The position numbers and the translations under genes are program-made. From positions 1 through 56,579 of the forward strand of contig CAVEOB010000004.1 in NCBI GenBank assembly GCA_963617265.1: a stretch of DNA of 56,579 bases. Direction: 5' to 3'. The first letter of the stretch is position 1, and each line of letters begins with the position of its first letter. The notes beneath the pieces were generated by a model. The model was not told the DNA's origin, ran no database searches, and saw only the letters and a list, made by a program, of their open reading frames with translations. The DNA is from Mediterraneibacter gnavus (lineage in GTDB: Bacteria; Pseudomonadota; Alphaproteobacteria; RF32; CAG-239). Shown piece after piece: positions 1,703 through 44,881 of the stretch.

Positions 1703-2188
1703 TTAAAACGGAATATCGTCGTCCAAATCTGATGGAGCAGAAGCCGCACTGTTATCCCAGCCAGAAGATGTGCCTCCGGCAGACGGAGCAGCCGAGAAAA
1801 CATCATTGCCGCCGGCAGGAACGCCGTCGCCGCCGCTGTTTTTAGAATCGAGCATAACCAAAACACTGTTGAAATTCTGCAGCACAACTTCGGTGGTATA
1901 GCGGTCAACACCGTTGTTATCAGTCCATTTACGGGTTTGCAGCTGACCTTCCAAATATACCTTAGAACCTTTGCGCAAATATCTTTCAGCGGTATCTGCC
2001 AGCTGAGAATTAAAAATCACCACGCGGTGCCATTCGGTTCTGTCTTTACGCTCGCCGGTGTTGCGGTCTTTCCAGCTGTCTGTCGTCGCCACATTCAAAT
2101 TAACAACTTTTGTGCCGGACTGAGTGTTATTAACCACCGGATCAGCTCCTAAATTGCCAACCAGAATAACTTTATTTATTCCAACCAT
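1703..2188 (-). CDS. ssb: Single-stranded DNA-binding protein
   Basis: OB-fold N-terminus (INKVILVGNLGADP), Gly/Ser/Ala-rich linker and the canonical acidic C-terminal tip DDDIPF. Confidence 0.95.
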   Translation of the reverse strand: MVGINKVILVGNLGADPVVNNTQSGTKVVNLNVATTDSWKDRNTGERKDRTEWHRVVIFNSQLADTAERYLRKGSKVYLEGQLQTRKWTDNNGVDRYTTEVVLQNFNSVLVMLDSKNSGGDGVPAGGNDVFSAAPSAGGTSSGWDNSAASAPSDLDDDIPF

Positions 2189-2278
2189 TATTTTATCCTT
2201 ACAAAAAAATTAAACTTTTTACAGCATAACAGCTTTTTGCAAAATCGCAATCACAAAAAGCCGTTGCTGCACATTATT

Positions 2279-4501
2279 TTAGGCGGCGTTTTCCACCGGA
2301 CAAAGCTCTGCCAAAACTTCTTTTTTCAGCGTTACATTATCCGCCTTGCCGGTAGCAAATACCGGTAATTTTTCGTGATACAAAATCACACGCGGCAAAT
2401 AAAGCTCTGACATACCGTTGTTTTTTACATATTCATGCAGCATTGCCGAGGTAACTTTTTCATTATTGGTTACCAAAACAATCTGCTCGCCTTTACTTTC
2501 ATGCGGAATCGAAACCACGCCATAGCTGTATTCCGGTCCCATATCCTTAGTGGCGTCCATAACCATATCCTGCACGGCGTTCAGCGATACCATTTCGCCG
2601 CCGATTTTAGCAAAACGCTTGATACGGTCTTTAATGGTAAAGAAGCCGATTTCGTCCATTTCCACCACATCGCCGGTGTGATACCAGCCGTCTTCAGGCG
2701 GAACCAAGACACCAGGGTTGGACGGCATATAGTAACCCTGCATAACATTTGGACCTTTCACGCACAGCTCGCCGCCGTTGGCAATACCGTCAACTGGCAG
2801 AATCTTAAACTGCATGCCCGGCATAATTTTACCGATAGAGCCGAATTTATTGAAAATTCCATTGTTGGCGGTCATAACCGGAGAACATTCGGTTGCGCCG
2901 TAAGCTTCCATCATACGCACGCCGGAATGTTCCATCCACATACTGCGGGTGTCAGACTTGGCAGCCTCGCCGCCGGAATACATCAAGCGGATATTGTGGA
3001 AATCGTACGGGTGGGCAATTTTTGCATAACCACGCAAGAAAGTATCGGTACCAAGCATCAAAGTTGCGCCAAGCTCATAAACCAGCTCGGCAACCACACG
3101 ATAGTGCAGCGGAGACGGATACAAGAACAGCTTAGAACCTTCAAACAACGGGAACAGAGTGCCCACAGTCAAGCCAAAGCTATGGAACATCGGCAAGGCA
3201 TTAAACAGCAAATCCTTAAAGTTAATGGTTTGAATCGCCGTCATTTGCTTGATATTGGCAATGATGTTAGCATGGCTCAAAACCACGCCTTTCGGAGCGC
3301 CCTCTGAACCGGAAGTAAACAGAATAACCGCCTTTTTGTCGCCGCCTGTTTTGTGCGGAACATGCTTAATTTTATAGCTGATATAGGCACCGATTTTAGT
3401 CCACAGCGACATTTTTTTAGCAATATCTTCCAAATAAACAATATTGCAGCCGGCGTTTTTCATATCTTCTACCACGTTTTCCATTTTGGCTTTAATAATA
3501 AAAGTACGGGAAGTCAAAACGGTTTTAACCAGCGCAGTTTTGCACATGGAAATCATATTTTTAGAGCCGACAGAAAAGTTAATCATCACCGGAGTGCGGT
3601 TATAAGCCGAAAGTCCGAAAAATGTGCAAACTGTGGCAATAGCGTTCGGCAGCAAAATACCGACATTTTCATCAACCTTAGTAAACTTTTTAAAGCTGCG
3701 ACCCAAAGCAAAAGAAGCAACAATAATGTCTTTATAAGATTTTTGCTTGCGGTTGATATCTTCTATTATGCGCGGGCGTTTAGAAAAGAAACCAGTGCGG
3801 GAATATACCTTAGCGGTTTTCATCAGCTGGGCAAACAATGAAATATTTTTGTCATAGTTAATATCAAAGCACATCTCGCGCAAAATCATATATACTTCAT
3901 TGCTGATGTGGTCGCGTTGGCGGCGCAGTTCGTCTTTCAGCTTAAAGCTGCGCGGCTTGCCAACATAGATACGCATTTTCGGCAGCGGACGGTGCGGCAA
4001 TTTGCCTTTAGTCTTAGAAAAATAGCCGTATTGCGGACCGTCGATCCAAACCGGAATAATCGGAGATTTAGATTTATCGGCAACCAGCCCCGGAGCTTCA
4101 TAAATTTTCATTAAACCGCCGTTTTCAGTAATGCGTCCTTCGGCGAAAATCACCACCAAACGCCCCTCGTCCACTTTGGCAATCAGCTTTTTAATGTCTG
4201 AAGGCTCAATCGGATTAAACTTTATTACATCGGCACGCCCCATCAAAAAACTAATCCAATGACGGCGGTACAAATGACCGTTTAGGGCAAAAACCGGATT
4301 ACCAGGGAGAAATGCAAACAGCAAAATAGGGTCTAAATAAGAAACGTGGTTAACCACATAAACGCCTTTTTTAGGCAAGTTGTTCACATCAAATTCAAAA
4401 ATACATTTTGCTTTCATCAAACGCAAAACCGTTCGCAGGCAAAATCTGACAAACTCTTTCACAAGTCCAACCTTTCTGTTGTTAAATATTATCCTATCCA
4501 T
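2279..4501 (-). CDS. aas: Bifunctional acyltransferase / acyl-ACP (acyl-CoA) synthetase, Aas-like
   Basis: 740-aa fusion. N-terminal PlsC-type acyltransferase HxxxxD box (NHVSYLDP) plus a C-terminal AMP-binding domain (TSGSEGAPKGVVLSH, GWYHTGD). Confidence 0.75.
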   Translation of the reverse strand: MDRIIFNNRKVGLVKEFVRFCLRTVLRLMKAKCIFEFDVNNLPKKGVYVVNHVSYLDPILLFAFLPGNPVFALNGHLYRRHWISFLMGRADVIKFNPIEPSDIKKLIAKVDEGRLVVIFAEGRITENGGLMKIYEAPGLVADKSKSPIIPVWIDGPQYGYFSKTKGKLPHRPLPKMRIYVGKPRSFKLKDELRRQRDHISNEVYMILREMCFDINYDKNISLFAQLMKTAKVYSRTGFFSKRPRIIEDINRKQKSYKDIIVASFALGRSFKKFTKVDENVGILLPNAIATVCTFFGLSAYNRTPVMINFSVGSKNMISMCKTALVKTVLTSRTFIIKAKMENVVEDMKNAGCNIVYLEDIAKKMSLWTKIGAYISYKIKHVPHKTGGDKKAVILFTSGSEGAPKGVVLSHANIIANIKQMTAIQTINFKDLLFNALPMFHSFGLTVGTLFPLFEGSKLFLYPSPLHYRVVAELVYELGATLMLGTDTFLRGYAKIAHPYDFHNIRLMYSGGEAAKSDTRSMWMEHSGVRMMEAYGATECSPVMTANNGIFNKFGSIGKIMPGMQFKILPVDGIANGGELCVKGPNVMQGYYMPSNPGVLVPPEDGWYHTGDVVEMDEIGFFTIKDRIKRFAKIGGEMVSLNAVQDMVMDATKDMGPEYSYGVVSIPHESKGEQIVLVTNNEKVTSAMLHEYVKNNGMSELYLPRVILYHEKLPVFATGKADNVTLKKEVLAELCPVENAA

Positions 4502-4711
4502 ATAATATTATTAACGGTTTGTAAAGAGAAAATAGGCGAGTCATCAACAGGCAAATTTCCGTTTATAACATATTGTTTTTACTATGTTTTTCAAATTTTA
4601 TTCACAGTTTTGCGCCAAAAACTTGCCAAAATTGATATATTGCTGTATTGTGCGCCCTACGTAACGCAAACTTGTTTGGGTTAACATGTTCTAATAATAA
4701 AAAGGTTTAAA

Positions 4712-5989
4712 ATGAAAAAGGTTCTTACATTAACCGCCTTGAGCACCCTTCTGCTCTCTACCAGCGCTATGGCCGCCGGTTTCCATTTAAGAGAACAGTC
4801 CGCTGCAGCTCAAGGTAACGCTTATGCCGGCGCAACTGCCGGTGCAGAAAATGGTTCATACGCATATTACAACGCCGCCGGCATAACCCGTCAGAAAGGC
4901 TTGCAGGTAAACTTGGGTGCAACCTATATTGCACCGCGCGCCACAGCTAAAAATGTTAAAAGTCCAACCGGAGAACGCGGAGCCGATGTGGAAAACGTTG
5001 TGCATGCCGCTGTTTCGCCGAACGGCACAGTTTCTTATCAGCTTAACGACCGCGCTTTTGCCGCTATTGCCGCAAACTCACCGTTTGGCATGATTACAAA
5101 ATATGACAGAGAATGGATTGGTTCCGACCACGGTATTACTTCTGATTTGAAATCCGGCACTATTACTCCGATGTTTGCTTATAAAGCAACCGATAAATTA
5201 TCTTTGGGCGCTGGCGTGCAAATGCAATATATTTGGGCACACTTGACCAGCAGCCACAATAATTCTAGAACTGGCTTGGTTACCGAAAACGGCAATGACT
5301 TTGATATGGGCTACCAATTGGGCGCTATGTATGAATTTACCGATGCAACCCGCGTCGGCGTAGGCTACCGCAGCAAAATCAACCACAAAATAAAAGGCAA
5401 AATGAAATCCAGCGGCAGCGATCTCTCTGCTTCTGACAATCCACAGTATGCTGCAGCAGGTATGATGGCTGATGCTTTGATGAACCAAAAAATCAGCGCT
5501 AAGTTAACCACTCCGGCAATGCTTTCAATGGGTATTTATCACGACATTAACGAAAAATGGGCAGTTATGGCAGAATATCAGCGTGTATTTTGGAGTTCTT
5601 TCCAAAACCTGACTTTCAAGAGCCAAAACGGCGGCTATACTATTGCCAACGTAGAAGAAAACTGGCGCGACACCAACTTTTATTCTATCGGTACAAGCTA
5701 TATGTTGGATAATCAATGGAAGCTGCGTTTAGGCTTGGCTTATGACCAAAGCGCTGTCCGCTATGCTCACCGTACGCCGCGTATTCCAGATTCTGATCGT
5801 ATTTGGTACTCGTTCGGTTTAGGCTATCAATATAATGATAGACTGAGCTTTGACGCCGGTTACACATATATTAAAGCTCACAGCGCGAGAATGAACTCGG
5901 CTATTACAGGCAACGATGGCTCACACGTTTCCGCCGACTATTCAAACTCGGTAAAAGTGTTTGCTTTTTCGGTGAACTGCGCGTTCTAA
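4712..5989 (+). CDS. FadL/TodX-family outer-membrane long-chain fatty acid/hydrophobic compound channel
   Basis: Signal peptide ending AMA, followed by AGFHLREQSAAAQGNAYAG as is typical of FadL-family N-termini. Beta-barrel-like alternating pattern with a C-terminal aromatic residue (F). Divergent from the aas-like gene. Confidence 0.8.
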   Translation: MKKVLTLTALSTLLLSTSAMAAGFHLREQSAAAQGNAYAGATAGAENGSYAYYNAAGITRQKGLQVNLGATYIAPRATAKNVKSPTGERGADVENVVHAAVSPNGTVSYQLNDRAFAAIAANSPFGMITKYDREWIGSDHGITSDLKSGTITPMFAYKATDKLSLGAGVQMQYIWAHLTSSHNNSRTGLVTENGNDFDMGYQLGAMYEFTDATRVGVGYRSKINHKIKGKMKSSGSDLSASDNPQYAAAGMMADALMNQKISAKLTTPAMLSMGIYHDINEKWAVMAEYQRVFWSSFQNLTFKSQNGGYTIANVEENWRDTNFYSIGTSYMLDNQWKLRLGLAYDQSAVRYAHRTPRIPDSDRIWYSFGLGYQYNDRLSFDAGYTYIKAHSARMNSAITGNDGSHVSADYSNSVKVFAFSVNCAF

Positions 5990-14123: not shown

Positions 14124-16283
14124 ATGAAAAATACCGGATTGATTGCATTGGTTGCCTTAGGCGTTATGCTGCTGGTTGCCGTAAAATTTAATTTGATGCC
14201 TAGCTTAAAAACATCATTATATGATGAAGACGGCTATGTTGATTCTTTAGAGACAAAACATGAAAATGGCGTGCAGAAAGATTATTATCAAAACGGCAAT
14301 ATTAAAACCGAAACTCCTTATAAAAACAACAAAATCGACGGCGTGCTGACCTCTTATTACGCCAATGGAAATGTTAAGTCGGAATCTAATTACGTTGCCG
14401 GAAATCAAGAAGGCGAAACTAAAACCTATTATAAAGACGGCGGATTAGAAAAAATTTACACTTACCGCAACGGACAGCTGAACGGACCGGTTAAAGCCTA
14501 TGATAAAAACGGCAAATTGGAATCTACCGCCGAATTTAAAAATAACGAGCAATTCGGCACCGAAACAGGCTATTACCCAAGCGGCAAAGTTAAATATGTG
14601 CTGAATATGAATGAAAACGGCAAAATCGACGGCAAACTCATTCAATATTTTGAAAACGGCAAAATTTCATCGGAAACTCCGTATACCAATGGTTCTGTAG
14701 AAGGAACCGAACAGGTTTATTATGAAAACGGCGAACTAAAAGAACTGAACAACTTTGTCAACAATCTGTATGACGGAGTGCAGAAAACCTATTTTGACAA
14801 CGGCGTTCTTTATGCCGAAGCAAACTATACTGCCGGCGTGCTGCAGGGCGTAACCAAAACTTATTATCCCAACAAGCAGCTGGAAGAATATTTGATCTTT
14901 GCCGACAATATGCGCAACGGCATTTATAAAAAATATTTTGATAACGGCAAATTGCAAAATGAAATCAACTTTAGCAATGACCAGCCAAATGGTTTGATGA
15001 AAACTTATTTCAGAAACGGCAATCTTTATTCGGAACTGCCGTATGTTGACGGTGTTATAGAAGGTCAGGCAAAAATGTATTATGAAAACGGCAAAAAGAA
15101 ATCCGTTGCCGATTTTGCCGATAACAAGCTGAACGGGCACGATGTCGGATTTTATCAGAATGGTAAAATGATGTATGACATCATGTATAAAGACGGCGTG
15201 ATGAACGGCAAGTCTGTTGAATATTTTGACAACGGAAATATAGCGCGCACCGCCAATTATTTAAACGGAGAATTGAACGGCGAAGTTATATCATATAACA
15301 AAAACGGCACAAAAGCCGCACAAACTTATATGACTAACGGCAAAATTTCGGGCAAAGTTATAACCTATAAAGCCGATGGCAAAACCGTTAATGAAGAGCT
15401 GAACTTTACCGACAACACCCTTAACGGAATTGTTAAAAAGAAAGATGCCTTCGGTAACACCGCGGTTGAAGCGTTGTTTAAAAATGGTCAGTTTGCCGGA
15501 ACAGAAACCGGCTATTATGAAAACGGCACGGTTAAATATGTGCTGAAAACAGAAAACGGCGAACTTTCGGGCAGCCAGCTGCAATATGATGCTAACGGCA
15601 AACCGAAAACCGACAATATGAACGGCACGCTTGAACTATTTTATGAAAGCGGCGCTAAAATGGCGGATATTCCTTATAAAAATGGTGTGCAAGACGGCGT
15701 GATTAAAACATATTTTGAAGATAACAAAGCTGTTAATGAAGTAACCGAAGTTAAAAACGGCAAACGCGACGGCAGCTATATTGAATATGACGCAAACGGC
15801 AAAAAAATTACCGATGCCACCTACAAAAACGGCGAACTTAACGGATATTTGCGGCTTTATTACGACAACGAACAGCTCATGGCTCAAGTTCCATATAAAA
15901 ACGGCGTTATAAGCGGCGAAGCTGCGGCGTTTGACCAACAAGGAAACAAAGTTTACAGCATGCGCTTTGCCGGCAACAAATTGGAAGGCGCCCGCACTGC
16001 CTACTATTCTGACGGCAAAGTAAAATATGTTAAAAACTACAAAGCCGGAATTTGGGACGGAAAATCATATAAAGAATATGATGAAAATGGTCAATTAACT
16101 TATGATGTAAGCGACGATGGTTTAAGCACTACTTATCGTAAAAACAATGGCTCCGGAACTATGGTTAAAATGTCGGACGCTGAGAAATCAGAATTACTGA
16201 AACGCATTGATAACCGCGAGGAAGAAAAACAAGATTTGAAAATGCTTTCTGACTTAAAACCTCAGGTGGAACCTCTGTTTTAG
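14124..16283 (+). CDS. MORN-repeat (YwqK-like) protein, membrane anchored
   Basis: 719 aa. N-terminal TM helix followed by more than 25 tandem ~23-aa units of the form YYxNGxxKxExxYxxGxxxG. Confidence 0.75.
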   Translation: MKNTGLIALVALGVMLLVAVKFNLMPSLKTSLYDEDGYVDSLETKHENGVQKDYYQNGNIKTETPYKNNKIDGVLTSYYANGNVKSESNYVAGNQEGETKTYYKDGGLEKIYTYRNGQLNGPVKAYDKNGKLESTAEFKNNEQFGTETGYYPSGKVKYVLNMNENGKIDGKLIQYFENGKISSETPYTNGSVEGTEQVYYENGELKELNNFVNNLYDGVQKTYFDNGVLYAEANYTAGVLQGVTKTYYPNKQLEEYLIFADNMRNGIYKKYFDNGKLQNEINFSNDQPNGLMKTYFRNGNLYSELPYVDGVIEGQAKMYYENGKKKSVADFADNKLNGHDVGFYQNGKMMYDIMYKDGVMNGKSVEYFDNGNIARTANYLNGELNGEVISYNKNGTKAAQTYMTNGKISGKVITYKADGKTVNEELNFTDNTLNGIVKKKDAFGNTAVEALFKNGQFAGTETGYYENGTVKYVLKTENGELSGSQLQYDANGKPKTDNMNGTLELFYESGAKMADIPYKNGVQDGVIKTYFEDNKAVNEVTEVKNGKRDGSYIEYDANGKKITDATYKNGELNGYLRLYYDNEQLMAQVPYKNGVISGEAAAFDQQGNKVYSMRFAGNKLEGARTAYYSDGKVKYVKNYKAGIWDGKSYKEYDENGQLTYDVSDDGLSTTYRKNNGSGTMVKMSDAEKSELLKRIDNREEEKQDLKMLSDLKPQVEPLF

Positions 16284-17364: not shown

Positions 17365-18402
17365 TTAACGTCCATTGGCCAACACCAGGATTAAATCGCA
17401 TCTTTGCTTGGAGCATACTCCGCATCTGGCAGCAATAACAGACAAATCAAACGGTTCACAGTGCATATCTTTGGCATAGTTGTCAGGAGCAGACTTTCCG
17501 CAAACAGTCAAAATACCGCCGCTTCGGCCGGTTATGCCCTCATTTAGCACAACAGCCCACGAATCGTCATATTCTGATTGTAAATAAAACATTTCTTTGC
17601 AAGTTTCTACCGCATTTGTATCCGGCAACGTCCAAAATCGTAAAAATAATCGTGACCCAATATTGCTGTTTGGTGGAGTAAAAGAATATATCTGCCAAGA
17701 ATTTCCAAACATATCTTTATTTTGCTCATCTAGCATATTTTGCGGAATAATTCCAATATCTTTATAAACATTCATCATCATTTGGTTATCGGTATTTGTA
17801 TAACTTTTTTCATTCATATACATAATCTTCAGATTTGATGTAAGAGTTACAATGTTTTCTTTCCAGCGATTTAATTTAAACTTCTGCATGGCTTTGGAGT
17901 AACCGGCAAGGCCACCGACACTCAGCACTGCGATTATTGCCAGCACGCCCAGCATTTCTATCATTGAACGGCCGTACTGCACTTGACTGTCAACATCATA
18001 CTTATCGCCACACTCCGCTGGCTGTGGCAGACGAGTATCCATGACTTTGTTGCTATAAGCAACGCTACTTTCTTCTCTCGCCACCAGAGAGAACATGCGT
18101 CCCCTGCACCAGTCATTCTCGGATTTATTCCGAGAATCTTCTCTCAACCAGTACTTATGCAACAATAAAGCTAATTTATTGACTAGGTTAGAGACTTGTT
18201 GCCAGAAGATTCTAGGCACGGGGCCTAGAATGACTGGTGCCAGAGGCGCGGGTTTTGTGCTTGTTGTAATGTTTTTGATACCCCTCACCCGACACTTTGT
18301 GTCGACCTCTCCCGCAAGGGGCGAGGTTACAGGATTACATCGCTTCGCTCGCACTAACGAGGGCGAGGTTTTAAATTTATCTGACTTTGAATTATTTTTC
18401 AT
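17365..18402 (-). CDS. Type IV pilin/pseudopilin-like protein with a 143-codon open 5' extension
   Basis: G-RSMIEMLGVLAIIAVLSVGG, with the Gly codon at 17973..17971, Glu at +5 and a hydrophobic helix, is a prepilin cleavage/methylation-type motif. C-terminal Cys pairs are present. The ATG at 18402 has AGGAAG 5 nt upstream. The mature part (17365..17970) is confident; translation of the extension is not. Confidence 0.6.
   Translation of the reverse strand: MKNNSKSDKFKTSPSLVRAKRCNPVTSPLAGEVDTKCRVRGIKNITTSTKPAPLAPVILGPVPRIFWQQVSNLVNKLALLLHKYWLREDSRNKSENDWCRGRMFSLVAREESSVAYSNKVMDTRLPQPAECGDKYDVDSQVQYGRSMIEMLGVLAIIAVLSVGGLAGYSKAMQKFKLNRWKENIVTLTSNLKIMYMNEKSYTNTDNQMMMNVYKDIGIIPQNMLDEQNKDMFGNSWQIYSFTPPNSNIGSRLFLRFWTLPDTNAVETCKEMFYLQSEYDDSWAVVLNEGITGRSGGILTVCGKSAPDNYAKDMHCEPFDLSVIAARCGVCSKQRCDLILVLANGR
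18107..18239. repeat. Inverted pair of REP-like hairpin modules inside the pilin-like 5' extension
   Basis: caccagtcattct-[cggatttattccg]-agaatcttc (18107-18141) and its inverse gaagattct-[aggcacggggcct]-agaatgactggtg (18205-18239). The arms are identical; the hairpin tops differ but both stay self-complementary. Confidence 0.8.
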
Positions 18403-22358: not shown

Positions 22359-23475
22359 CTAAGCAGCTGTAGTGTCATTTTGTATTTTTTGCGCCAGCGC
22401 TGCCGACAAGAACAAATCTATATCACCGTCCAGCACGCTTTTTACATCGGCGGTTTCGGCATCGGTACGCAAATCTTTTATCAAGCGGTACGGCTGCAAA
22501 ACATAAGAGCGAATTTGGAAACCCCAGCCATTATCGCCTTGATTGTCACGCACTTCCTGAGCTTTGTCGGCACGCTTCTGCATTTCTCTTTCATATAAGC
22601 GCGCCCGCAGCATTTTCCAACAGTTATCGCGGTTTTGAAATTGCGAACGCTGGGTTTGGCTGGAAACGACAATACCAGTCGGAATATGGGTAATACGCAC
22701 AGCCGAATCCGTTTTGTTAATGTGCTGACCGCCAGCGCCAGAAGCACGATAAGTATCAATACGGCAATCTGCTTCATTGATTTCTATTTGAATATTGTCA
22801 TCAACTACCGGATAGACGCCGATAGAGGCAAAGCTGGTATGGCGGCGGGCGGCGCTGTCAAACGGCGAAATACGCACCAAGCGATGCACTCCGCTTTCCG
22901 ACTTCAGCCAGCCGTAAGCGTTGTGCCCGCTGATTTTGATAGTTGCAGATTTCAATCCAGCGACTTCGCCTTCGGTTTCTTCTATATATTCAACCTTATA
23001 GTGATGAGTTTCAGCCCAACGCGTGTACATACGCAAAAGCATCTGCGCCCAATCCATAGCTTCGGTGCCGCCGCTGCCGGCATGAACTTCCAAATAGGTG
23101 TCATTAGCATCGGCTTCGCCGGAAAGCAAAGCTTCAAGCTCGGCGTGCTTAACCGTTGCCTGCAGTTCATCTAAATTATGCTGCAGCTCGCCAAGCATAG
23201 CTTCATCATTTTCGCTTTCGGCAAATTCAACCATTTCGGCATAGTCGTCCAATGATTTTACATAGCCGTCGTAAGCGTCTAATGAAGCTTCCAAAGTGTT
23301 TTTTTCACTCATCAGCTTTTGGGCTTTTTCCTGATTATCCCAAAGATTGGGGTCGGCGGACAAGGCTTCCAGCTCCTCGCGGCGCTGCACAGCATTGTCA
23401 TAGTCAAAGAGACCTCCTTAGCAATGCCAGCGATTGCTTGATTTCATTGATTAAATTATAAAATTCGGCTTTCAT
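22359..23475 (-). CDS. prfB: Peptide chain release factor 2 (programmed +1 frameshift)
   Basis: Frame 0 runs from ATG 23475 (MKAEFYNLINEIKQSLALLRRSL) to an in-frame TGA at 23406..23404. The +1 frame continues DYDNAVQRREE... and contains SPF (RISPFDS) and GGQ (SGAGGQHINKT). Confidence 0.93.
23404..23418 (-). promoter_or_regulatory. RF2 programmed +1 frameshift site
   Basis: Minus strand: AGGAGG-UCU-CUU-UGA-C, with the internal SD at 23418..23413, slippery CUU at 23409..23407 and UGA at 23406..23404. Confidence 0.9.
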
Positions 23476-31346: not shown

Positions 31347-31374
31347 TTGACTTATGGCGTGAGGCTGCTATAGA
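31347..31374 (+). promoter_or_regulatory. Sigma-70-like promoter of the second pilin-like locus
   Basis: TTGACT (31347-31352), 16-nt spacer, TATAGA (31369-31374), about 40 nt upstream of the SD and ATG at 31413. Confidence 0.55.
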
Positions 31375-31412
31375 CTATGTCTAATAATCAACATTAAAAT
31401 GAGGAAAGAAAG

Positions 31413-32326
31413 ATGAAAAATAAGCAAACAAAAGGTCTCTCTCTCTCTCTGCGAATCCTATACGTCTGATTAGAGGCGCTTTTTCTGCCATTCAGCACGT
31501 TTTTGCAGGGTTTAGTAAAAAAATATACAGTTTTAAACACCCCTCTCTCTCAACGTCATGCTTGAGCGTGAGCGATAGCGAACTGTCTCGAGAATCCAGA
31601 AATAAAGAGTCCATATTCTTTAAGCGGATATACCATACTGGATCCTCGGCGAATGAGCTGACGCTCAAAGCCAATGATGACCATAAGAGTGTGCTGCAAA
31701 GTGGTCGTTCTATGATTGAAATGCTCGGAGTGTTGGCGATTATCGGTGTTTTATCTGTCGGCGGGATTGCAGGATTCACTAAAGCAATGCGCATGTATCG
31801 CTCGAATATTCAAAAAGAACTGCTGGTTCAGATTTTTGCCAATGCCATAAATTTGCGGTCAGAACTCGCCGCAATGAAAAATAATGTTTCAGGTAAAATA
31901 ACCTATATTTTTGATGTGTTAGGATTGGTTCCTGACGGTATAACCTATAAAAATGGCTGGCTCTATGATAAAGATGGCAATAATTTAGATGTTTATTATG
32001 GAATGGTTCGTTGGAATAATACTGATGGCAGCACTTCCAGCCGTTTAGAATATATGGTTCGGTTAGGATTACAGCATAATTCAGCAATGCTTTCTCCCAG
32101 CGCCGAAGATTTTTGTGAAAACGCTATATTTGTGGCTCAGCAAAATATCAAAGATATTGAAAAAGTTGTAATGTTTCAATACGATAAAGATGCTTTAAAT
32201 CACAATAAAGCCACAACCTTTACTCAAAATAGACTTAGATCAATAACCATAGCAGAAGCGCAAAGCCTTTGTCGGTGGTGCAACATAGATGAAGCTTGCA
32301 CTTTGCAGCTATACATTTATCCTTAA
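31413..32326 (+). CDS. Type IV pilin/pseudopilin-like paralogue; start codon currently out of frame (putative phase-OFF)
   Basis: G-RSMIEMLGVLAIIGVLSVGG with the Gly codon at 31703. The pilin frame is open from 31424 to 32326 but has no nearby ATG. A promoter, SD (GAGGAAAG) and ATG at 31413 sit in another frame that stops at TGA 31467. The two frames are separated by a (CT)7 tract. Confidence 0.6.
31436..31450 (+). repeat. Dinucleotide simple-sequence repeat T(CT)7 inside the 5' coding region
   Basis: tctctctctctctct lies directly after codon 8 (GGT) of the ATG-initiated frame. Confidence 0.95.
31619..31673 (+). repeat. 55-bp repeat, copy 1 (inside the pilin-like leader)
   Basis: tttaagcggatataccatactggatcctcggcgaatgagctgacgctcaaagcca; 48/55 identical to 44827-44881, with the last 33 nt at 32/33. 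Confidence 0.85.
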
Positions 32327-44826: not shown

Positions 44827-44881
44827 TTTAAGCGGCTATATTGTTCTAGATCCTCGGCGAATGAGCTAACGCTCAAAGCCA
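44827..44881 (+). repeat. 55-bp repeat, copy 2 (3' flank of the Cys-rich gene)
   Basis: tttaagcggctatattgttctagatcctcggcgaatgagctaacgctcaaagcca, in the same orientation as copy 1. Confidence 0.85.

Follow-up and report, generated by a model that had tools for sequence, protein, structure and literature searches.

In Helicobacter pylori, the oipA gene has a CT dinucleotide repeat in its 5′ region and is turned ON and OFF through slipped-strand mispairing (PMC10564699). The locus described here lies in a 56.6-kb stretch of DNA (hereafter termed the window, meaning the whole of the stretch that was analysed) and resembles H. pylori oipA (hopH) and the other Hop genes in the CT unit of its repeat, in the position of the repeat just past the start codon and in the N-terminal signal region, cleaved in the Hop proteins and probably also here, that the repeat falls in. 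The likeness to the Hop genes extends to ON/OFF control by frameshift, and to the presence of several paralogous surface-protein genes with tracts of their own. The CT repeat of oipA is the closest match to the proposed switch in the window. The proteins are nevertheless unrelated: oipA and the Hop genes encode β-barrel outer membrane proteins with a Sec signal peptide, whereas the product here is pilin-like with a class III-type motif. The host also differs, in this case being an uncultured gut alphaproteobacterium, and here the tract is followed by 61–209 neutral leader codons before the functional domain is reached.

A repeat within the 5′ coding sequence subjects both pilC and opa of Neisseria to translational phase variation (PMC5320596), and opa is found at 11 loci (PMC11868660). 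The opa genes, with their (CTTCT)n repeat, form a scattered multigene family in which each copy has its own leader-coding repeat and switches independently, and they are like the genes considered here in this respect as well as in the pyrimidine-rich repeat, the translational mode of phase variation and the signs of recombination between paralogues. However, the opa repeat is a pentamer and the one here a dimer, the proteins are not homologous, and opa tracts range from 2 to 30 units with measured switching rates, whereas only 6 to 8 units have been seen here. In the case of pilC1/pilC2 the parallel is that a component of the type IV pilus is switched by a 5′ coding repeat (PMC5320596), but the pilC poly-G is a homopolymer instead of a dinucleotide repeat, and PilC acts as a tip adhesin or assembly factor rather than as a pilin carrying a class III signal peptide. 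Type IV pilins resemble the protein encoded here in having a hydrophilic leader running to Gly, with Glu at +5 and a stretch of some 20 hydrophobic residues, and, as far as the predicted fold goes, in a long N-terminal helix and a β-sheet head with a Cys pair; short-leader paralogues also occur in the same genomes. In comparison with them, and especially with the type IVb pilins, the differences here are leaders of 73–221 aa, Arg at +1 and hidden Markov model (HMM) scores below cut-off. On these comparisons the mechanism would be a textbook one, working like those of oipA, opa and pilC without homology to any of them. In the literature searched, the host clade, the pilin-like family and leaders of 73–221 aa were not found described. 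As set out below, it is very probable that the T(CT)n tract is a slipped-strand ON/OFF switch of a pilin-like gene, and that the allele found in the window is OFF.

Start region, CT tract and reading frame

The features of the locus, together with a paralogue elsewhere in the window, are as follows.

31347..31376, +: promoter-like site from a consensus scan, −35 TTGACT at 31347–31352
31401..31408, +: Shine-Dalgarno sequence GAGGAAAG, with a gap of 8 nt from GAGG to ATG
31413..31469, +: ATG and predicted OFF-state product MKNKQTKGLSLSLRILYV, 18 codons, TGA at 31467–31469
31436..31450, +: T(CT)7 tract, candidate slipped-strand switch, codons 8–13 counted from ATG 31413
31451..31702, +: 84 leader codons read in the pilin frame, ANPIRLIRG... 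to ...SVLQS, net basic, predicted to be translated in the ON state alone
31543..31550, +: short (CT)4 run, lengthened by a 14-nt insertion at 31534–31547
31562..31668, +: repeat-element-like leader module with 12-nt inverted repeats TTGAGCGTGAGC / GCTGACGCTCAA
31703..32326, +: pilin-like domain, 207 codons and stop, Gly(−1)/RSMIEMLGVLAIIGVLSVGG, Glu at +5
17365..18402, −: pilin-like paralogue without a CT tract, in-frame 144-aa leader, starting MKNNSKSDKF

A preliminary description of this DNA had proposed that a Shine-Dalgarno sequence and an ATG (31413–31415) are separated from a pilin-like reading frame by a T(CT)7 tract, and its account of the locus was borne out: the Shine-Dalgarno sequence and ATG are both present, the tract reads TCTCTCTCTCTCTCT, and the ATG frame yields MKNKQTKGLSLSLRILYV before it is halted by the TGA. 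The +2 frame, as was also claimed, runs without a stop from 31424 to the stop codon at 32324–32326; it is preceded by a TAA at 31421–31423, it includes GRSMIEMLGVLAIIGVLSVGG, and within it the Gly codon of GRSMIEML lies at 31703. It had further been said to have no ATG of its own near the motif, and indeed its first possible start is the TTG at 31562, with no ATG, GTG or TTG earlier. The simple-sequence repeat lies early in the coding sequence, past the start codon and ahead of the functional domain. When the simple repeats of the window were ranked T(CT)7 was the longest, the runners-up having 4 units, and a tract of this kind appeared in none of 100 dinucleotide-preserving shuffles.

The start region recurs at related loci. 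The sequence GAGGAAAGAAAG 5′ of the ATG is identical in 13 of 14 tract loci, though it was not demanded by the search pattern; L001 differs here, with GGGGAAAGAAAG in its place. The Shine-Dalgarno sequence, the ATG, the residues MKNK and the first codons are kept across paralogous loci that have differing promoters and differing heads, and the arrangement of GAGGAAAG, ATG and tract gives the same 18-codon truncated product at all loci with seven units. Upstream, a predicted promoter for ATG 31413 is plausible. The pairing put forward in the preliminary description, TTGACT-N16-TATAGA with its −10 at 31369–31374 (+), is possible, but has to be qualified by an alternative −10, TAGACT at 31371–31376, at a spacing of N18; the latter lines up with TAGATT in another type of promoter found in related loci (L002). 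Promoter-like sites in the consensus scan numbered 6, compared with 3.1 ± 1.7 in shuffles, and so were not enriched. A terminator-like hairpin at 31463–31478, with CTTTTTCT after it, extends over the stop codon of the OFF state; it was considered as part of the mechanism and set aside, as the stem is not kept in relatives and is probably fortuitous.

In the model proposed, the conserved strong Shine-Dalgarno–ATG and the promoter would drive production of a pilin-like precursor, in which T(CT)n comes after the first 8 codons, and slipped-strand mispairing at replication would insert or delete units of CT. An n of 6 or 9 would place the ATG in frame with the long leader and the G/RSMIEML domain, and the precursor would be made (ON); with n = 7, as in the window, or n = 8, translation would stop after 18 to 20 codons and the pilin domain, without a usable start of its own, would be OFF. 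Since the tract lies within a leader that is probably cleaved, changes in its length would always leave the mature protein as it is. A genome has several paralogous loci with the same cassette and different pilin heads, which would allow variants to be switched independently. From the sequences we infer slippage as the mutational process, its reversibility and a switching rate, alongside a protein output that would follow tract length and a presumed surface or pilus function for the pilin-like protein. A consideration against the model is that seven CT units make a short tract for high-rate slippage.

The relationship between tract length and frame was followed in a comparative DNA set of 24 related loci from gut Alphaproteobacteria metagenome-assembled genomes (MAGs). 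A genome pattern scan returned 10 true loci among 54 stretches, and of 87 stretches from a flank-anchored DNA pattern scan of JGI metagenomes one (L111) was in the family. The loci fall into three classes.

T(CT)6, pilin in frame with the ATG: L001, L002, L147, L151
T(CT)7, pilin in frame +2: window, L003 (= L026), L014, L015, L020, L051, L111, L145, L146, L148, L149, L153, L154, L156
T(CT)8, pilin in frame +1: L031, L150, L152, L155

There were no exceptions to this rule among the loci examined, and the seven-unit class comprises the window and 13 more distinct loci. The products of six-unit alleles are 280–321 aa long; alleles of seven and eight units stop after 18–20 codons. The expectation that loss of one CT would join ATG 31413 to the pilin frame is borne out in nature by close relatives, whose T(CT)6 alleles encode full-length proteins that begin MKNKQSKGLSLSANP... 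(P0124, P0148, P0021 and P0133), and single 90%-identity clusters contain both full-length MKNKQSKGLSLSANPIHLIKG... proteins (P0124, P0125, P0133, P0148 and P0021) and shorter internal-start calls. Length polymorphism, which had been predicted for related strains, was therefore found as 6, 7 and 8 units, and the tract is not invariant. At three different chromosomal loci it was possible to align contigs from different samples with 0 mismatches over 1.5–6.8 kb and a single 2-nt gap, which falls in the tract.

LpxI-Adk locus: L147 (6 units) vs L148 (7), 6804 nt aligned, 0 mismatches, one 2-nt gap
RbfA-IF2 locus: L002 (6) vs L145 and L146 (7), 3951 and 1757 nt aligned, 0 mismatches, one 2-nt gap
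ValRS-OmpA locus: L152 and L155 (8) vs L153, L154 and L156 (7), 1.5–4.4 kb aligned, 0 mismatches, one 2-nt gap

Among the GTDB species representatives, which are the sole unbiased sample, none of the nine loci carried an ON allele and seven units was the commonest length. Slow switching might account for this, as might strong selection for the OFF state; it would fit a state of ‘most copies OFF’ as in opa, and is also compatible, though this is less likely, with recoding on the (CU)7 run. A homology search with the ON-state leader peptide recovered only two fragments, because the ON alleles are cluster members and not representatives. Two loci of unusual structure were also encountered. At L023 (CAVIDY010000014.1, 6355 onward) the tract is broken by a C-to-T change (TCTCTCTTTCTCTCT) at a seven-unit length, with an intact pilin ORF downstream, and this allele may be locked OFF or slower to switch. 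At L034 (CAVIDY010000011.1, 5626–5940) there is an orphan cassette in which Shine-Dalgarno, ATG and T(CT)8 are followed by ~100 leader codons and then a stop; the pilin domain is missing within 1.8 kb past the cassette.

The pilin-like domain and its leader

The context of the predicted cleavage motif is ...SVLQSG/RSMIEMLGVLAIIGVLSVGGIAGF, that is, a hydrophilic leader ending in Gly and then a hydrophobic stretch. Class III signal peptides are described (PMC10191384) as a hydrophilic leader that runs to Gly or Ala and then 20–25 residues, most of them hydrophobic, with Glu in many cases at position 5, and the window protein has a sequence of this form. Residues G1 and E6 are invariant in 68 homologues, as are C138 and C190. 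Comparison of the mature domain between the window and L003, both of which are OFF, gave a dN/dS of 0.16 at a dS of 0.225, without stops, which indicates that the gene is expressed often enough for selection to act. The scores against the HMMs PF07963 (13.5 bits, cut-off 21.2) and TIGR02532 (15.9, cut-off 16.3) are both below cut-off, and these near misses are probably due to the Arg at +1. In an AF2 model (mean pLDDT 86), residues 15–58 form a helix, and there is a β-sheet head and a Cys pair. Foldseek found no match in the PDB at E ≤ 0.001, the top matches being the minor pilins TcpB and CofB at E 0.02–0.3, and a profile search of PDB sequences gave no significant match for the head domain. 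Membership of the type IV pilin family is therefore putative, based on the motif and the predicted fold.

A family search gave more than 6,600 matches, nearly all of them unnamed proteins from MAGs of uncultured Alphaproteobacteria in gut metagenomes. Adjoining related loci are paralogues with short leaders (MYKNFEQG/RSMLEML and MQKAKSCELG/RSMIEML), and their form supports the reading of the motif as a class III signal peptide. Two short-leader members, at 4289–4954 (−) in L147 and 2115–2735 (+) in L150, have leaders of 8–10 aa and no CT tract and lie <1 kb from tract-bearing genes, so that switchable and non-switchable pilin-like genes adjoin. Characterised prepilin leaders are typically ~5–30 residues long, and 73–221 aa is far longer. 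Leader length in prepilins is variable and greater in the T4b pilins (PMC10191384). Both the Arg at +1 and the 96-aa leader of the window protein are atypical for prepilins.

From ATG to Gly the leader spans 73–221 codons across the loci, the window having 96 aa. Stop codons were counted over the stretch that separates the tract from the Gly codon at 10 loci, each contributing 61–209 post-tract leader codons and together 993: there were 0 in the pilin frame and 60 and 86 in the other frames. For the window the figures are 0 in the pilin frame vs 4 and 11. The dN/dS of the leader is about 1.2–1.33, and its sequence drifts neutrally, held only to staying free of stops and frameshifts. Indeed the window leader has insertions of +14 and +1 nt compared with that of L003, a net change of +15 that restores the frame. 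The 14-nt insertion (31534–31547) is seen relative to L003, L002 and L145, and because of it the L003-type internal ATG chosen by gene callers is out of frame in the window. The sole demand on the leader would seem to be that it joins the ATG to the pilin domain, as would be expected of a leader that is cleaved, probably at the Gly by a prepilin peptidase.

Part of the leader forms a repeat-element-like module, with inverted repeats at 31562–31573 and 31657–31668. A 33-nt copy (97% identical) of the part of this module at 31641–31673 occurs at 44849–44881, in a convergent intergenic region directly past a terminator hairpin, so the module exists as a non-coding repeat too. In L002 the leader module is repeated just 3′ of the pilin gene (3974–4108 vs 3117–3252, 90% identity).

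Other explanations for the tract

The window allele is out of frame, as are most of the sampled loci, and the interrupted tract of L023 and the cassette without a pilin domain at L034 also have the look of loss. These observations are what would be seen if the seven-unit tract were a fixed inactivating mutation in a pseudogene, with no adaptive switching. Set against this, OFF alleles as far apart as dS 0.225 keep a dN/dS of 0.16 and no stops in the mature domain, the 993 leader codons are without a stop compared with 60 and 86 in the other frames, and at three loci identical strains stand one CT unit apart, some of the alleles being in frame. Purifying selection together with the stop counts indicates a gene that is not in decay; the pseudogene reading was rejected on both these grounds, and decay is considered highly improbable. 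It is more improbable still that the differences in tract length are sequencing or assembly errors at a dinucleotide repeat, a possibility that the preliminary description had itself raised. Although every sequence comes from a short-read metagenome assembly, the same lengths recur across independent samples and assemblers (L145 with L146; L153 with L154 and L156; L152 with L155), tracts of 13 to 17 nt are far below read length, no further difference is present over up to 6.8 kb, and in-frame proteins are recorded by several sources; the repetition of the same lengths by independent assemblies argues against assembly error.

The two remaining explanations accept the tract and question its effect on the pilin. 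An internal start (TTG 31562, GTG 31568 or GTG 31691) could make the pilin at any tract length, which would leave the ATG and tract as a separate small upstream ORF that is at most regulatory. Gene callers do choose internal starts (P0001, P0121), a cleaved leader would accept any in-frame start, and some relatives have an ATG ~10 codons 5′ of the Gly (P0122, MTGGRGANSSG/RSM). In the window, however, the candidates have no Shine-Dalgarno sequence at a workable distance (AAGAG is 1 nt from GTG 31691), the L003-type internal ATG is out of frame, and an idle upstream region would not keep 73 to 221 stop-free codons and indels in multiples of 3. There is no Shine-Dalgarno sequence at TTG 31562, which had earlier been named as a start that might be used, and all three codons were discarded as starts, having no Shine-Dalgarno sequence and not being conserved; both an internal start and a separate upstream ORF are thus judged unlikely. 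Recoding, in which a ribosomal +2 or −1 shift or transcriptional slippage on (CU)7 would make ‘OFF’ in truth ‘low’, is regarded as very unlikely. It would suit the finding that seven units is the commonest state, and a 2-nt slip on a dinucleotide repeat should restore perfect codon–anticodon pairing, but a canonical slippery heptamer is absent, there is no conserved stimulatory structure (the hairpin at 31463–31478 is not conserved), and the genomic alleles of 6, 7 and 8 units account for expression without recoding. A slipped-strand switch is accordingly the reading preferred here.

Paralogous loci and the wider system

The genes around the locus in the window are housekeeping genes (RNase E/G, M48 peptidase, RuvC, YebC, DEAD-box helicase and FtsH). 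Pfam scans of 30 window ORFs identified housekeeping functions only, with prepilin peptidase and pilus machinery absent from the window; in L002, a PilT-like ATPase (below cut-off) is encoded upstream of the tract-bearing paralogue. The preliminary description had pointed to a long in-frame extension in the other pilin-like gene of the window (17365–18402, −), and it does have 144 aa before GRSMIEML; this gene has no CT tract and so cannot be switched in the way proposed here. Its leader contains an imperfect palindrome (18092–18152 / 18194–18254, with 61-nt arms that are 72% complementary and 41 nt apart) and a ‘SPLAGEV..RVRG’-type hairpin element at ~18340–18290, both of which look like MITE-like repeats inserted in frame. 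At ~1 kb from this paralogue, a gene at 14124–16283 (+) encodes a 719-aa protein made up nearly entirely of MORN-variant repeats (PF07661, E 9e-76). Elsewhere in the window, the release factor 2 gene (ORF 22359–23390, −, encoding the domains PCRF and RF-1) contains a +1 programmed frameshift site of canonical form, AGGAGG-TCT-CTT-TGA-C, at 23418–23403 (−) and an ATG upstream at 23474, and the GTG start listed for it is therefore an artefact caused by the frameshift.

Single MAGs carry several tract loci, namely L015, L016, L026 and L031 in CAKQPS01, and L020, L023 and L034 in CAVIDY01. Homology between the window and L001 starts exactly at the Gly codon (31703), and in promoter and cassette L001 shares 98% identity with L002 despite a different chromosomal locus. 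Positions 1–132 of L001 match 3850–3981 of L002, which is the 3′ end of the L002 gene, so that an L002-type pilin 3′ end is found directly 5′ of the promoter of the RuvC-locus pilin. The arrangement of L001 and L002 suggests tandem copies or the transfer of cassettes between loci.

It is conceivable, and is put forward tentatively with rather less than even confidence, that the CT switch belongs to a larger system, as yet undescribed, of uncultured Alphaproteobacteria in the gut. Such a system may include a big family of pilin-like genes dispersed among housekeeping genes; prepilin-type leaders of 73–221 aa, which would be much the longest known; neutral leaders that may have been assembled from MITE-like repeat modules and are only kept open; and a portable Shine-Dalgarno–ATG–(CT)n cassette that, with the junction coding for GRSMIEML, may provide points for recombination. 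Recombination may in turn shuffle promoters, switches and heads, and a commensal would then vary its pilus combinatorially in the manner of Opa.

Most of what is known of phase variation by simple repeats comes from cultured pathogens. In the present case the states of a probable switch can be read in public metagenome assemblies of an uncultured alphaproteobacterium from the human gut, the same strain being found in different states from one person or sample to another. As a mechanism this is ordinary, and its comparative proof is clean, whilst the long leader, unconstrained in sequence, is unusual: it offers a clean natural case of a translated leader held only to an open frame, and if it is true that prepilin peptidase cleaves leaders of 73–221 aa, the definition of the class III signal peptide would be stretched. 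The CT switch also accounts for the inconsistent N-termini assigned by gene callers within the family. For the bacteria themselves, it would point to the pilin-like family as a surface structure that varies, with selection probably coming from immunity, phages or the niche.
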